Translations under genes and position numbers: made by a program
Origin: an uncultured Mollicutes bacterium
GTDB lineage: Bacteria; Bacillota_I; Bacilli_A; RFN20; CAG-826
DNA length: 64,000 bases
NCBI GenBank assembly: GCA_900545015.1
Contig: UQXJ01000007.1
Coordinates: 2,983 to 66,982 of the forward strand
Direction: 5' to 3'
In this document: one piece after another, positions 2,104-44,409 of the stretch
How the letters are laid out: each line of letters opens with the position of its first letter
Numbering within the stretch: position 1 is the stretch's first letter
The notes under the pieces: model-generated
Databases searched by the model: none
Seen by the model: only the letters and a program-made list of their open reading frames with translations
What the model was told of the DNA's origin: nothing

Positions 2104-3789
2104 ATGTCGTATCAAGCACTTTATAGAAAATATAGAAGTAAAAACTTCGATGAATTAGTCGGACAAGATGCAATTAAGCAAACTTTAACTAATTCTTTAA
2201 AATTAGGTAAAATTTCTCATGCATATCTATTTAGCGGACCTAGAGGAACAGGAAAAACTAGTGTTGCTAGACTATTCGCTAAAGCTTTAAACTGTAAAAA
2301 AGGACTTGGTGAGATTTGCAATGAATGCGATAACTGTCTTGAAATAAATTCAGGTAGCAATCCAGATGTAGTTGAAATCGATGCTGCTAGCAATAGTGGT
2401 GTTGATGAAGTTAGAAATCTTATTGATAAAGTAAAGTACGCTCCAATCAACGGAAGATATAAAGTCTATATTATTGACGAAGTTCATATGATGACAAATA
2501 GTGCATTCAATGCATTATTAAAAACACTTGAAGAACCACCAAGTTATATAGTTTTTATTCTTTGCACAACTGAACCTTATAAACTTCTTCCTACTATTTT
2601 AAGTAGGTGCCAAAGATATGATTTTAAAAAAATCGATGATGAAGATTTAAAGAAATTACTAACTAGAGTTTTATTAAATGAAGGTGTCACTTGTTCAAAT
2701 GAAGCTCTTAATTTAATTGTTGAATTAGCAAATGGTGGAGCAAGAGACTCGCTTTCAATTCTTGATCAAGTTATTTCTTTTTGTGGAAATGATATTAACA
2801 CCGAAGACATTATCAAAATGTTTGGTTTAACAACAAACAAAGAGAAAATTAATCTCTTTGAACTCATCAAAAATAAAAATACATACAAAGTTATTCAAAC
2901 TTATGACAACTTCGTTTCAAGAAACGTTGATGTATCTCGTTTTATAAATGAAACATTAAATTTATTAAAAGATGGATTAATTTATTTAGAAACAAGAGAT
3001 AAAAATTTAATCATTTCAAGTTCAGAAGATGACGCAAAATCAATTATGATGATGTTTAATTCATCTGAATTAATGTACTTCATTGACACATTACTCAAGT
3101 GTCAGCAAGAAATGAAAACGACAAATAACCCAAATTTCTTATTTGAAATTTATCTCTTAAAATTACTAGAAATTAAACCTAAAGCATGTGTAGTTGAGCC
3201 TCAAATTGTTTCTCAAAAGCCTGCAATTTCTAGTGATAGCATCATCAAAAACCCTGCAAAAGTCGATTATTTTCAAGAAAATAAGCCAGTTCAATCACAA
3301 GTTAAACCTGTTGTCGAACCTCAAAAAGTTCAACCAGAATTTAAGATTAGCGCTAGCAATTCTTTGCCTACTATCGCATACGATGGAGATGCAAATGAGT
3401 TAAAAATTGATCAACTTATAAACTTAACAATCATTGCAAACAAAGATGAAAAGCGAATGCTTATTTCTAGACGGGATTCATTAAAAACTCTTTTAAATAG
3501 TCCAGCTGATGGTCCTTATGCTTCTTTACTTCTTGATTCAAAACCATACATACTTACAAATTATAATTTAATTTTAGTTTGTGATACAAAGTTACCAGCA
3601 AAGAAAATAAACATTAAATCCAACCAAGAAGGACTTCAAAAAATAGTTAAAAAACTATTAGGTAGAACAGTTTCAATTTATGCATTAAATAGAGATGACT
3701 CTACCCAGTTAGTTAAAACATATTCAAACCTTGGTGAAATTAATAAGTTGCCAAATAAGAAAGATATACAAGATTCAAAGTTAATTTAG
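2104..3789 (+). CDS. dnaX: DNA polymerase III subunit tau/gamma
   Basis: ORF 2032..3789 trimmed to ATG 2104, which has AGAAAGGA 8-9 nt upstream. MSYQALYRKYRSKNFDELVGQ is the canonical N-terminus. Walker A GPRGTGKTS, zinc module CNECDNC, SRC motif LSRCQRY, and a P/Q/V-rich linker after residue ~380. Confidence 0.93.
   Translation: MSYQALYRKYRSKNFDELVGQDAIKQTLTNSLKLGKISHAYLFSGPRGTGKTSVARLFAKALNCKKGLGEICNECDNCLEINSGSNPDVVEIDAASNSGVDEVRNLIDKVKYAPINGRYKVYIIDEVHMMTNSAFNALLKTLEEPPSYIVFILCTTEPYKLLPTILSRCQRYDFKKIDDEDLKKLLTRVLLNEGVTCSNEALNLIVELANGGARDSLSILDQVISFCGNDINTEDIIKMFGLTTNKEKINLFELIKNKNTYKVIQTYDNFVSRNVDVSRFINETLNLLKDGLIYLETRDKNLIISSSEDDAKSIMMMFNSSELMYFIDTLLKCQQEMKTTNNPNFLFEIYLLKLLEIKPKACVVEPQIVSQKPAISSDSIIKNPAKVDYFQENKPVQSQVKPVVEPQKVQPEFKISASNSLPTIAYDGDANELKIDQLINLTIIANKDEKRMLISRRDSLKTLLNSPADGPYASLLLDSKPYILTNYNLILVCDTKLPAKKINIKSNQEGLQKIVKKLLGRTVSIYALNRDDSTQLVKTYSNLGEINKLPNKKDIQDSKLI
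3244..3276 (+). repeat. Recurrent motif, copy D (inside dnaX, in frame)
   Basis: ATC AAA AAC CCT GCA AAA GTC GAT TAT TTT CAA encodes IKNPAKVDYFQ in the variable linker of tau. By hand alignment it matches copy A at 25/31 positions. Confidence 0.7.
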
Positions 3790-3801
3790 GAGGAAATTAT
3801 T

Positions 3802-4107
3802 ATGAATATGCAACAAATTGTCCAACAAATGACAAAAATGCAAAGACTTTATGAAAAAGAACACAAGCAAATTGAAGATAAAGAATATGAGTTTGTCGCT
3901 AATGGTGTTGTTAAAGTCGTTTTAAAAGGAAATTATGAATTAGTTTCAATTGAATTTATCGATAAAGATGCTGTTAAAGAAGATCCAGAAATGGTTGAAG
4001 ATATGATTAAAATCGCTTATAACGGATGTAAAGAACAAATCGAGAGTGATGAACAAGCTCTCGCTGATAAATTTAAGAAAACCGCTGGTGGAGGAATGAT
4101 GTTTTAA
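3802..4107 (+). CDS. ebfC: Nucleoid-associated protein YbaB/EbfC
   Basis: 101 aa, strong SD (AGGAGG), canonical position between dnaX and recR. Sequence (MQQIVQQMTKMQ...VKVVLKGNYELVSIEFID) is typical of the YbaB family. Confidence 0.88.
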   Translation: MNMQQIVQQMTKMQRLYEKEHKQIEDKEYEFVANGVVKVVLKGNYELVSIEFIDKDAVKEDPEMVEDMIKIAYNGCKEQIESDEQALADKFKKTAGGGMMF

Positions 4108-42275: not shown

Positions 42276-44374
42276 TGCCAGGTCCAAGAAAAATGGCTAT
42301 TAGTAAGCCAAAAAATGCTAAAGCTACTACTCATAGAATGCTTAAAGATTTTAAAAATGAAAGAATTAAAATCATATTTGTTATTGTTCTTGCTATCGCT
42401 GGAGCAGTTTTAAGTATAATCACACCAATTATATTAGGTAATTTCTTAAACAACGCATTGCCTAAAGAAGGTAGTGATATTACAAGTAGTCCATTATTTA
42501 ATTTTGACTTTATAAATAACGTAATTACTATTAAATGGGATTACTTCTTCTCCAATTTTGGATTAATGTTAGGCCTATACGCAGCAAGTGCTATTTTAAG
42601 CTGGGCGAGTGAATTTATTACAGTTGGAATTTCTACTAAATACGCTTATGACTATAGAGATAAAATAATTCAAAAATTAGATAAATTGCCTTTAAATTAT
42701 TACGATAAAGTTCCTTATGGAGATACACTTTCAGTATGTACAAACGATGTTGATAATGTTTCAAGAAATTTGCAATCAATCATCGTTCAAACTACAAGTG
42801 GTATTGCTTTGTTTTTAGGATCATTAATTGCAATGTTTATTTACGACTATAGACTTGCATTTATCGCTCTTATTACGCTTCCAATTACATTAATTGTTGT
42901 ATTTTTAATAGCTAAAAATAGTCAAAAACTCTTTAAGTCTTATAGAAAAGAACTTGGTATATTAAACGGAAAAGTTGAAGAAAATTATGCTGGAATTGAT
43001 GTTATTAAATTATTTAATAAAGAAGAAGACGTTGAAAAAGAATTTGATGAAGTAAATAAAAGAATGTCTAAAGCAGACTTCCTCTCTCAATTCTTTGCAG
43101 GTTTTATTTTCCCAACTACTATCTTTATTAATAATGTTGCTTATGTTGCTATCGCTGTTGCAGGTGGCGTCATTGGTCAAGTTGGTACAATCATAACATT
43201 CTTAAATTTATTAAATTTATTCACTAGACCATTCCAACAAATTGGTCAAATTGTAAACATTATCCAAAGTGTTTTAGCAAGTGCTGAAAGAATTTATACT
43301 TTGCTTGACGAAGTTGAAGAAATTCCTGATAAAGAAACTGCAATTAAAGATAGTAATGTAATCGAAGGTGAATTTGATCTTAATCATGTTTATTTTCAAT
43401 ATTTAAAAGATAAACCGTTAATCGAAGATTTCACGTTGCACGTTAATAAAGGTGACACCGTTGCAATCGTTGGCCCTACTGGCGCTGGCAAAACAACAAT
43501 GGTTAACCTTATTATGAGATTCTACGAAATTACGAATATAGCTAATTTTGATGACTTAAGAAGAAAAACAATTGCTTGTTATAATGAAATTAATAAATTA
43601 GTCGATAACCCAGAAATCAAATCAATTTCTCTAAATGAAAGCATCGATATTAAAGATGAAACAACAATTCAAAGAGAGAAATTAAGTGAGTATTTATCAA
43701 ACATTATCAAAGAAAATAAAGATAAAGATGAATTAATTCAAAAATTAATTTTCATCAAAGATCACTTAATTAATGTTTTCAATAATGGAAATATTAAACT
43801 TGATAATAAAACAATTTTTAATTATACACGTGGCGCTTTAAGAGGCAGTGTTGGTATGGTTTTACAAGATACCTGGCTCTTTAAAGGAACAATAAGAGAA
43901 AATTTATTATTTGGAGACATTAATGCAACTGATGAAGAAATAGATAATGCTTTAAAAGAGGCACACATCTATCATTTTGTTCAAACATTACCTGGTGGTT
44001 TAGACTTTGTACTTAATGAAGATGGCAATAACGTTTCTCAAGGTCAAAGACAGTTATTAACAATTGCTCGAGCAATCTTATCTAAACCAAAAATTATGAT
44101 TTTAGATGAAGCTACATCTTCAGTTGACACAAGAACAGAAAAACAAATCCAAGATGCTCTTGATAAAATTATGAAAAATAGAACATCATTTGTTATTGCT
44201 CATAGATTATCAACAATTAAAAATGCAAAACTTATTATCGTTATGAAAAAAGGAAAAATTGTTGAAATCGGATCGCATTATGAACTGCTTGCAAAAAATG
44301 GTTTCTATAAAGAATTGTATGAATCTCAATTCAGTGGAAATAACCCAATGAGCAAAGAAGCAGAAGCAAGTTAA
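42275..44374 (+). CDS. ABC exporter, fused permease/ATPase, subunit 2, with an ~85-aa insertion in the ATPase domain
   Basis: 699 aa. Walker A GPTGAGKTT, Q-loop region GMVLQDTWLF, signature VSQGQRQL, Walker B IMILDEATSSVD. The ATAATG overlap with subunit 1 implies a heterodimer. Ends in a triple in-frame stop, TAA TAG TGA. Confidence 0.9.
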   Translation: MPGPRKMAISKPKNAKATTHRMLKDFKNERIKIIFVIVLAIAGAVLSIITPIILGNFLNNALPKEGSDITSSPLFNFDFINNVITIKWDYFFSNFGLMLGLYAASAILSWASEFITVGISTKYAYDYRDKIIQKLDKLPLNYYDKVPYGDTLSVCTNDVDNVSRNLQSIIVQTTSGIALFLGSLIAMFIYDYRLAFIALITLPITLIVVFLIAKNSQKLFKSYRKELGILNGKVEENYAGIDVIKLFNKEEDVEKEFDEVNKRMSKADFLSQFFAGFIFPTTIFINNVAYVAIAVAGGVIGQVGTIITFLNLLNLFTRPFQQIGQIVNIIQSVLASAERIYTLLDEVEEIPDKETAIKDSNVIEGEFDLNHVYFQYLKDKPLIEDFTLHVNKGDTVAIVGPTGAGKTTMVNLIMRFYEITNIANFDDLRRKTIACYNEINKLVDNPEIKSISLNESIDIKDETTIQREKLSEYLSNIIKENKDKDELIQKLIFIKDHLINVFNNGNIKLDNKTIFNYTRGALRGSVGMVLQDTWLFKGTIRENLLFGDINATDEEIDNALKEAHIYHFVQTLPGGLDFVLNEDGNNVSQGQRQLLTIARAILSKPKIMILDEATSSVDTRTEKQIQDALDKIMKNRTSFVIAHRLSTIKNAKLIIVMKKGKIVEIGSHYELLAKNGFYKELYESQFSGNNPMSKEAEAS

Positions 44375-44409
44375 TAGTGAAAAACCTTGCAAAAATCAAC
44401 TATTTTTAG
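44371..44409 (+). repeat. Recurrent motif, copy B
   Basis: TTA ATA GTG AAA AAC CTT GCA AAA ATC AAC TAT TTT TAG, starting within the ABC stop codon region, in the -1 frame relative to the ABC gene. Confidence 0.75.

Follow-up and report, generated by a model that had tools for sequence, protein, structure and literature searches.

What kind of element is a motif of 26–30 nt that recurs along the chromosome of an uncultured Mollicutes bacterium? The 64-kb stretch of DNA analysed here as a whole, referred to as the window, was described in an earlier note as carrying four copies on one strand (A–D below), far more than chance would give, with neither a conserved hairpin nor promoter geometry. 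The coordinates and sequences quoted there are correct, and the motif is confirmed as a genuine, non-random DNA motif without a hairpin. Its consensus word is aAAAACC[C/T]TGCAAAACTCAA[C/T]TATTTTt. Searched with a tolerance of at most 3 mismatches, the degenerate consensus AAAACCYTGCAAAANTCRAYTATTTT has 6 matches in the window and 0 in 100 dinucleotide-preserving shuffles of it. A weight matrix trained solely on copies from other genomes and then applied to the window scored six sites there at 23.6–44.9 bits, against a best score of 18.3 bits over 100 third-order Markov simulations. The word holds more than 40 bits of information and is non-palindromic, with an asymmetric core and T and A tracts on either side, about 10 bp apart, in helical phasing. 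It is unstructured in both orientations (consensus folding energy 0 kcal/mol), a sigma-70 scan of the copies gave no consistent geometry, and the motif has no close match to parS, which the earlier note had also set aside.

The window holds six scoring copies, one of them on the minus strand and three within genes, together with one partial copy. Copy A (19274..19303, plus strand, 44.9 bits) is intergenic: it follows the stop of a PucR-type regulator gene by 5 nt, and the convergent tmRNA gene (19329-19683, minus strand) has its 3′ end 25 nt away. Copy B (44379..44408, plus strand, 40.6 bits), also intergenic, lies between the stop of an ABC-transporter gene (42275-44374, plus strand) and a bidirectional terminator hairpin (44414-44433), beyond which stands a convergent FGGY kinase gene. 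Intergenic copy C (39713..39742, plus strand, 34.1 bits) occupies the divergent spacer between pth (39087-39641, minus strand) and a TetR-family gene (39833-40450, plus strand), where a promoter scan places a TTGACA-N16-TAAAAT promoter-like site at 39790, downstream of the copy; it is polymorphic among strains (A/G and A/G-type changes). Copy D (3246..3275, plus strand, 38.8 bits) is in sense orientation in dnaX (2032-3789, plus strand; assigned by Pfam) and is translated there as KNPAKVDYF. Two further copies were absent from the earlier list. Copy E (34710..34739, minus strand, 34.9 bits) lies in sense orientation in tilS (34129-35361, minus strand) and uses another frame, KNLQNSTIL; the same tilS position also bears the motif in L011, L110 and L111. 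Copy F (38221..38250, plus strand, 23.6 bits, 3 mismatches), antisense in mfd (35592-39077, minus strand), is degenerate, with an intact 5′ half and a diverged 3′ half, and its site scores 13–18 bits in other strains and in the sister species. The possible partial copy is in prmC (approximately 580..613, minus strand), whose ORF extends past the left end of the window. Its 5′ half, GAAAACCTTGCAAAAC, is exact and its 3′ half, ATTATTTT, is shifted by 1 nt; membership of the family is uncertain because the ungapped matrix gives it no score.

How far the word extends beyond this genome was answered by one degenerate pattern run against 185,579 species genomes. It returned 99 stretches, nearly all of them from MAGs of about 19 related species of uncultured gut bacteria (Candidatus Onthovivens and uncultured Mollicutes or Bacilli). 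The pattern had eight degenerate positions, and the copies still collapse onto one consensus; about 50 additional degenerate copies were found within the same 8-kb pieces and none at chance loci. Exact-pattern copies number up to 25 per MAG, the density is about one per 10–14 kb and copy number varies about five-fold between species. Matches outside the lineage look like chance, and the viral contigs scanned gave 0 matches. Of the checks that the earlier note had proposed, the profile scan of related genomes was the informative one. The family is restricted to one lineage.

Does the word encode a peptide? The earlier note had read it in one frame, ending ...AK[LIV][ND]YF, and had considered a micro-ORF or a relic of a duplicated gene 3′ end. 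The shared frame is real for the four listed copies, and three of their four variable positions are conservative or synonymous; it does not hold for the family, in which the tilS copy reads KNLQNSTIL. A stop directly after TTT, which the earlier note had seen in most of its copies, follows only 10 of the 85 copies taken from related genomes, where the same frame is open upstream for a median of 6 codons, and most of the intergenic copies lack a start codon as well as an adjacent stop. Of the 19 in-gene copies among the 99, 10 are in sense orientation and use all three frames between them, and the other 9 are antisense and share the sole open antisense frame, a distribution that argues against codon-like variation. 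Furthermore, the C/T exchange at position 6 freely swaps Pro for Leu. A short coding sequence of either kind was rejected on these sequence grounds (stops, frames and the Pro/Leu exchange) and retains almost no probability.

The word may point either way, regardless of genes and of the copies next to it. The same-strand arrangement that had been noted for the four listed copies breaks down in the family, where tilS carries a strong minus-strand copy, and it is chance: of the pairs of neighbouring copies, 28 share an orientation and 27 are opposed. With respect to the adjacent gene the word is likewise oriented at random, and both orientations occur beside gene 3′ ends. An RNA-level element of the 3′ UTR, another of the earlier proposals, is at odds with this randomness, because half of the transcripts would then carry the complement, and with the lack of structure.

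Position relative to genes is far from uniform. Spacers make up about 13% of the DNA and hold about 80% of copies. These intergenic copies usually have a gene 3′ end no more than 25 nt away on one side, or overlap one, and in 19 cases the TAG, TAA or TGA that the motif forms on the opposite strand serves as the stop codon of a convergent gene; gene starts are 40–500 nt away. This layout would suit a transcription-unit boundary element, in which a bound protein or the arrangement of A and T tracts stops or insulates transcription in either direction, or stabilises 3′ ends. Some convergent pairs are separated by little beyond the motif (L044), and the word resembles half of the local terminator type AAAA-CCTGC-AAAA...TTTT: like an intrinsic (Rho-independent) terminator it has an A tract, a C-rich arm (CCYTGC), AAAA and a T tract just downstream of stop codons, and rare copies complete the hairpin (L093, L035). 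The difference from such a terminator is that the 3′ arm is absent from more than 95% of copies and that the consensus is unstructured either way round. Hairpins with a T-run occur at 30% of motif-bearing 3′ ends versus 22% of others, so that canonical terminators are neither replaced nor required by the motif. About 20% of copies lie inside genes unrelated to one another, among them the essential dnaX, tilS and ABC ATPase genes, in the middle of which termination would do harm. Any neutral passenger would moreover be expected to lie near 3′ ends, since space on the promoter side is constrained. A boundary function is thus considered unlikely.

Mid-gene copies, seen in dnaX, tilS, ABC-transporter and GH3 genes, also bear on how the word arose. 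In the ABC transporter, homologues have GDIEFRDFNF and GKIEFRNVWF where the motif encodes KIIEFCKVF, and these align with no indel between them. The alignment of the tilS segment KNLQNSTIL to KNLQNLSIF and KNHEIARIL (120 homologues) is equally free of indels, and the homologues aligned to copy E include some without the motif; no insertion was found when the GH3 copy was aligned to its homologues. Because the copies overlay homologous codons without indels, they arose in place by substitution and not by insertion. Their mid-gene, indel-free position also speaks against the relic of a gene 3′ end.

This bears directly on a very small non-autonomous mobile repeat of the REP or MITE type, copied by an enzyme in trans. 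The word is dispersed, mainly extragenic and near-identical within a genome; its five-fold range of copy number, its flips and shifts inside the same spacer and the stop codons of neighbouring genes that fall within it would all suit such an element. REP/BIME and other small extragenic repeats reach comparable densities, with tens to hundreds of copies in a genome, and they too lie just past gene 3′ ends in either orientation and are near-identical within a genome. REPs, however, lie strictly outside genes, form imperfect palindromes and owe their spread to RAYT transposases, whereas the word core lacks dyad symmetry, is present in genes and leaves no insertion signature. The word has neither terminal inverted repeats nor a target duplication nor a hairpin. 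Inverted pairs 0.9–1.5 kb apart flank ordinary genes and not transposases, comparison of 11 strains revealed no presence/absence polymorphism, and variation clusters at a few tolerated positions, unlike random decay. The mobile-repeat explanation is already weakened by these observations and seems improbable.

The earlier note had also suggested an att-like recombination site or a cassette boundary left by integrating elements. One copy adjoins the tmRNA gene, a classic integration target, but the motif has nothing in common with the tmRNA 3′ end. Contig ends are modestly enriched (14 copies within 600 nt vs 7.8 expected), because low-coverage assemblies break at an exact 26–30-mer repeat. No integrase or mobile-element genes were found beside or between the copies examined, mid-gene copies leave the reading frame undisrupted and viral contigs have no matches. 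This candidate was largely refuted on those grounds and is very improbable. Overall, the interpretation offered in the earlier note is partly supported.

Comparison between species shows that the word persists where the DNA on either side of it has diverged. In the ABC|FGGY spacer, the region of copy B, the motif is kept in four species whose flanks are unalignable, on one or the other side of the terminator hairpin. Sites also shift and flip as the word stays: orientation is reversed at the same spacer between L007 and L044 and beside tmRNA between the window and L077, and in L008 the motif is on the 5′ side of tmRNA. Genomes carry their own variants of the word, with a C:T ratio at position 6 of 33:7 in JAXDXW and 1:9 in CAMNHN, and at position 19 of 0:10 in JAFUEZ. 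Distant relatives retain only decayed relics, as syntenic loci at 46–51% TilS identity hold just 17–23 bits at the same places. Within a species the copies are under no extra constraint; strains at about 99% identity have 5 polymorphic sites in the 121 nt of copies versus a background of 2.9%.

Which protein, if any, would read such a word? The main rival to an uptake function is a high-affinity site for an abundant architectural or positional chromosomal protein, comparable to Noc, SlmA or MatP, or for a bending protein; spread along the chromosome would then matter, and relation to genes would not. Random orientation and context, sites in genes and spacers alike, and A/T tracts phased at about 10 bp and roughly symmetric about the core, which suggest bent or wrapped DNA, all favour it. 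So do sites kept while flanks diverge, genome-specific variants that fit co-evolution with a protein, and relatives that hold only decayed relics. Noc NBS, SlmA SBS, MatP matS and ParB parS similarly number tens to about 100 per genome in genes and spacers, independent of local transcription and conserved in related species. These sites are, however, short, regionally patterned palindromes of 13–16 bp read by dimers, whereas the word is asymmetric over 26 bp, and its more than 40 bits far exceed what marking about 100 sites would take in a genome of about 1 Mb. Spacers alone could serve a structural role, and a word forced into a conserved strand of the ABC ATPase is more suggestive of drive than of need; the binding protein is itself hypothetical. 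An architectural site is therefore possible though doubtful. Lineage restriction, orientation, in-place origin, turnover, variants and decay are equally expected of any position-tolerant protein site.

Our analysis tentatively favours a DNA-level lineage word with a trans-acting reader that behaves closest to uptake sequences. Like the USS of Pasteurellaceae, it is lineage-specific, massively over-represented and present on both strands, in spacers near gene ends and in several frames inside genes; it likewise arises by substitution and not insertion, and it is conserved with variants in related species. Its asymmetric core followed by helically phased AT tracts recalls the extended Haemophilus USS, which has this layout. 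Species-specific 'dialects' of one word and a strong, orientation-independent intergenic or 3′-end location are shared with the DUS of Neisseriaceae; a length of 10–12 nt, a density of about one per kb, the minor pilin ComP as reader and typical pairing in terminators are DUS features not seen for the word. Terminators are often built from inverted pairs of USS or DUS; such pairs are rare here, with just two hairpin variants, formed from the motif's own 5′ arm, in about 140 copies. The intergenic bias of USS is weaker than that of the word. Known uptake sequences are 9–12 nt long, with at least 1000 copies per genome at about one per kb, and the USS core is 9 nt, with about 1000–1500 or more per genome (PMC1852404), whereas about 26 nt are nearly invariant here, at about one per 10 kb.

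About 0.8 Mb of lineage DNA, screened by regex, yielded no ComGA- or ComGC-like genes, but with about 3% of each genome covered this absence carries no information. Unlike the hosts of USS, this is a Gram-positive-type Bacilli lineage, in which competence and selective uptake are hypothetical. To our knowledge, uptake signals have so far been described only from Neisseria and Haemophilus relatives, and we know of no Firmicute with sequence-specific DNA uptake.

The motif is best read as a lineage-wide recognition word at the DNA level, and as neither a gene, an RNA nor a mobile element. We infer both that a reader exists and that it is the DNA-uptake apparatus. A sequence-specific, genome-encoded reader would act in trans and favour DNA bearing the word, the phased A/T tracts beside the core helping to bend DNA at the reader. 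In the most likely form, the competence machinery would preferentially bind and import word-bearing fragments, and recombination would then spread alleles that carry the word. Through such preferred import and recombination, copies may accumulate through point substitutions at any place that tolerates them, in spacers just past stops and in permissive stretches of proteins, and would be kept as the surrounding DNA diverges and their positions turn over.

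A check of the sequence confirmed the four plus-strand strings described in the earlier note, copies A (19274), B (44379), C (39713) and D (3246), each where it had been placed; as an inventory of the word in the window they are incomplete. A matrix built from these four copies retrieves a fifth, unlisted site at 34708-34741 on the minus strand, with 26.7 bits against a maximum of 20.9 bits in 200 third-order Markov simulations. With a matrix built from copies of other genomes only, six window sites score 23.6-44.9 bits (null maximum 18.3), namely 3246+, 19274+, 34710-, 38221+, 39713+ and 44379+. 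Both background comparisons proposed earlier were run: window sites outscore the maxima of the third-order Markov simulations, and a degenerate consensus, allowing at most 3 mismatches, matches 6 sites in the window and 0 in 100 dinucleotide-preserving shuffles. A seventh, partial copy lies on the minus strand inside prmC (about 580-613), with a 1-nt offset. The common strand of copies A to D is a coincidence: one of the six scoring sites is on the minus strand, and among neighbouring copies elsewhere 28 pairs share an orientation and 27 are opposed. This lack of bias excludes replication-polar words (Chi, KOPS/SRS, Ter).

The window has a G+C content of 29% and a gene set typical of Firmicutes: prfA-prmC, dnaX, ybaB, recR, tmk and holB; a PucR-type regulator and tmRNA (19329-19683, minus strand); dnaC, rplI, gdpP, ssb, rpsF and lysS; tilS, an S4-domain gene, mfd and pth; and TetR, two ABC exporter genes and an FGGY kinase. 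The names ftsH and dus are taken solely from syntenic strain loci, and the GC skew merely tracks gene orientation. Copies A, B and C are intergenic, and copy D lies inside dnaX on the sense strand. The two added copies are also within genes, copy E inside tilS, on the sense strand and in a frame other than that of D, and copy F inside mfd, antisense. The tmRNA reaches 141 bits with Rfam and is absent from the ARAGORN output for the same window, and at 59240-59330 on the plus strand the wcaG RNA motif is weakly matched, below threshold (30 bits where gathering requires 42; E = 0.12). In one strain of the window's species (L109:14700-20198) the rpsF-ssb-rpsR side is swapped for other genes, a strain-specific segment encoding a fusion of lysS with a tRNA-binding domain as well as a DUF4379 protein and a ParA-like ATPase. 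Reassignment of CGG from Arg to Trp is predicted in Onthovivens (2026 paper, PMC13092985); CGG codons may be misread in the present translations, made with table 11, and the motif itself contains none.

The scan of related genomes suggested in the earlier note shows that the word recurs well beyond the window. One degenerate pattern, run against 185,579 species genomes, matched 99 stretches, about 88 of which come from about 19 related MAGs (Candidatus Onthovivens and uncultured Mollicutes/Bacilli), a single MAG having as many as 25 copies of the exact pattern; the remainder are single matches in unrelated taxa, at chance expectation. Despite the eight degenerate positions of the pattern, the copies converge on aAAAACC[C/T]TGCAAAACTCAA[C/T]TATTTTt. 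About 50 more degenerate copies, scoring at least 16 bits, lie within the same 8-kb pieces, against 0 at chance loci. In 0.69 Mb of lineage DNA, 95 pattern copies were observed and 0 expected; the copies are dispersed over many contigs at a density of about 1 per 10-14 kb, with which the window agrees. Their excess at contig ends is modest (14 versus 7.8 expected) and is best put down to breaks of low-coverage assemblies where a 26-30-mer is exactly repeated. Among the papers searched, none contains the sequence of the word or treats repeats or competence in this clade.

Within this DNA, 19 of the 99 copies are well inside ORFs and 24 overlap an ORF end; in 19 of these 24 a convergent gene takes its stop codon from the motif, whose TAG, TAA or TGA is read on the other strand. 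The other copies are intergenic; ORFs cover about 87% of the sequence. The copies show no preferred orientation with respect to the genes beside them. In the earlier note the copies had been read in one peptide frame, with an unconventional micro-ORF among the explanations. This reading fails. In-gene copies are translated in several sense frames, as KNLQNSTIL, (E/K)NLAKL(N/D)YF or EKPCKTQLFS, and antisense always as KI(I/V)EFC(K/R)VF, the sole open frame on that strand. A small ORF would call for a conserved frame with start codon, ribosome-binding site and stop, and starts and stops are few; since a stop directly follows the proposed frame in only 10 of 85 copies, and the frame stays open upstream for a median of 6 codons, the peptide reading is rejected. 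An RNA element fares no better, as the word has no fold and no Rfam 15 match overlaps any copy, either at the gathering threshold or at E values up to 10.

Gene 3' ends lie within 25 nt of the motif, on either side, and gene starts 40-500 nt away, an arrangement that bears on a possible role at transcription boundaries. Furthermore, the left part of the motif (A tract-CCYTGC-AAAA) and its final T tract resemble half of a local terminator type. The hairpin is completed in two copies only, by way of a partial inverted 5' arm, and more than 95% of copies are without it. In these two (L093:1525-1570 and L035 around 1476, minus strand) the 5' arm pairs with a downstream TTTTGCAGG(T)TTTT, giving strong terminator-like hairpins (-14 to -18 kcal/mol) whose loop is the motif's CTCAAYTA. 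A separate terminator-like hairpin of the window, AAAAAGGCCTGCAAAACGCAGACCTTTTT (14838-14871, plus strand), has the same A tract-CCTGC-AAAA in its left half and scores 16 bits with the first matrix. An intrinsic terminator, that is a stable hairpin followed by a U tract, is not what the consensus offers: it is unstructured, folding at 0 kcal/mol in both orientations, as the earlier observation that no hairpin is conserved had implied. Nor does the word substitute for terminators, canonical ones being found at 30% of motif-bearing and 22% of motif-free 3' ends. A transcription-boundary role is improbable in our assessment. The conclusion that the word is not a sigma promoter also holds, as neither strand has a -10-like hexamer enriched at a constant distance, apart from its own TATTTT; only copy C reaches a 9/12 match to a sigma-70 promoter, and in less than half of the cases does the gene downstream share the motif's orientation.

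The conserved core spans 26 nt and is asymmetric, without dyad symmetry. In the unselected flanks, weak but clear A tracts (-21 to -17, -1 to 3 and 29-31) and T tracts (-9 to -6, 22-26 and 41-44) follow a spacing of about 10 bp, and their roughly symmetric placement about the core suggests bent DNA. The main rival to the interpretation favoured below, in which the word would be bound by a chromosomal protein with an architectural or positional role, belongs here; we regard it as rather unlikely. One such site, the ParB centromere parS (a 16-bp palindrome, TGTTNCACGTGAAACA, in few copies near the origin), does not fit, since the word is asymmetric and its copies are dispersed; the window is without a parS match at fewer than 3 mismatches, in line with the earlier note. 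A regulon is similarly rejected: unrelated housekeeping genes adjoin the copies, and no DNA-binding protein recurs beside them. Other boxes do occur next to some copies. In the MAG CAMNHN, tandem 11-nt boxes (TTAGTAGTTTT/TTAGTAGTTT) stand 5-8 nt downstream of three copies (L031:895-925, L032:242-272 and L046:4080-4120) and, as the reverse complement, at another locus (L045) without the motif; they look like a separate direct-repeat protein site. Repeated TTTTCACG boxes adjoin copies at L048:3690-3730, L092:5000-5040 and L069 upstream of 7636, that is in two orthologous spacers and one unrelated spacer, and may be the operator of some regulator.

Comparison with homologues indicates how copies arise. 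In an ABC transporter, KIIEFCKVF aligns with the conserved IEFxxVxF strand of ABC ATPases, and in-gene copies show no indel in ABC, GH3 or tilS genes. For tilS, 120 homologues align gap-free, and KNLQNSTIL passes into KNLQNLSIF and KNHEIARIL with rising distance. Because the copies overlay homologous residues without indels, they were made in place by substitution and not pasted in. In spacers the word persists while its position changes. Between the ABC and FGGY genes, the motif is present in four species whose flanks are unalignable, on either side of a terminator hairpin, and in opposite orientations at two of the loci (L007 versus L044); beside the tmRNA it is 3'-proximal in either orientation (window and L077) or 5'-proximal (L008). 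In syntenic loci of more distant relatives only relics of 17-23 bits are found. Motif-rich genomes include GCA_037251215.1, JAXDXW01 and CASFZJ01, and motif-poor relatives include UQFN01, DBFJOT01 and the species of L112. A separate dialect was considered for the species of L112, but a pattern derived from the two relics there matched the metagenomes just once; not being itself repeated, these relics are decayed copies. The S4 protein is present in 94 metagenome blocks. The four copies of the earlier note are kept in each of 11 strains, about 99% identical, of the species to which the window belongs; no presence/absence polymorphism was seen among these strains, and their 5 polymorphic sites in 121 nt, versus a background of 2.9%, reveal no extra constraint visible at that scale.

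These observations also weigh on a mobile mini-repeat, which the dispersal of near-identical copies might recall and which we consider very improbable. Insertion, as judged by empty sites with target duplication, is contradicted by the lack of indels relative to homologues and of polymorphism in the 11 strains, and the word has neither the palindrome nor the terminal inverted repeats of REP or MITE elements. An IS or MITE was rejected: inverted pairs 0.9-1.5 kb apart enclose cysK, a CDF transporter or tadA-hpf and no transposases, and the genes on a 9-kb contig that has a copy at either end are ordinary ones. Viral contigs of IMG/VR hold no match, and a phage origin was accordingly rejected. 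The suggestion of an att-like or cassette-boundary site likewise does not survive, housekeeping genes being found between and beside the copies; this reading and that of a micro-ORF are essentially excluded.

All features point to a double-stranded-DNA signal that would be maintained by a putative lineage-specific trans-acting reader: independence of position and orientation, accumulation by substitution, and loss with the reader. The word would accumulate by substitution at any tolerated place and, were the reader lost, would be lost in turn. As a candidate reader we considered a 526-aa ORF of the window (26578-28158, plus strand) without a Pfam match, 512-540 aa long across strains and missing from the rpsR/gdpP spacer of more distant syntenic loci (L112 and L113). 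It is present in motif-rich and absent from motif-poor syntenic loci, yet its homologues (3 clusters among 5.8 billion proteins) are limited to the window's species and its sister, which rules it out as a reader for the clade as a whole.

Uptake sequences are the best-documented systems with such behaviour, and by this analogy an uptake or self-recognition mechanism is favoured, if tentatively. Uptake sequences show dialects, and the uptake signal sequence (USS) of Pasteurellaceae consists of a core and phased AT tracts. Like the USS and the Neisseriaceae DNA uptake sequence (DUS), the word is a single one, hugely over-represented and equally so on both strands; its in-gene copies arise by substitution, at tolerant positions and in several frames; and it has dialects, the preferred base at positions 6 and 19 differing among genomes. 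The uptake sequences of the two families are lineage words on both strands, present within genes and also in spacers close to gene ends, with at least about 1000 copies per genome (about 1 per kb) and a core of 9-12 nt (PMC1852404). Unlike them, the word occurs about once per 10-14 kb, at a roughly ten-fold lower copy number, its 26-nt core is more than twice as long, and closely spaced inverted pairs forming terminators are rare, the L093 and L035 hairpins being the only ones. With these differences, the word cannot be counted as an established member of the USS/DUS family. No ComGA- or ComGC-like gene turned up in a regex search of about 0.8 Mb of lineage DNA, a sample of no more than about 3% of each genome. 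Somewhat more doubtful is the specific proposal of a true uptake or self-recognition signal of a Gram-positive-type Bacilli lineage (Onthovivens and relatives), the first outside Proteobacteria and unusually long at 26 bp, which would imply that the Com machinery of Firmicutes includes a new receptor specific for a DNA sequence.

For annotators, it is relevant that the word provides real genes with stop codons and peptide segments, and it is a probable cause of broken assemblies where MAG coverage is low. Dispersed lineage-specific recognition words are already known as a class; an uptake sequence in Firmicutes would, if true, be the first. If the architectural reading is true, the word would lead to an undescribed chromosomal protein that binds a specific sequence, its site being unusually long and asymmetric. 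Under either reading it is a sharp taxonomic marker for the clade in metagenomes. Should the uptake reading be true, sequence-biased transformation would extend beyond two proteobacterial families, a 26-bp ligand would be available for fishing out the receptor, and an uncultured gut lineage with a reduced genome would be seen to police its import of DNA.
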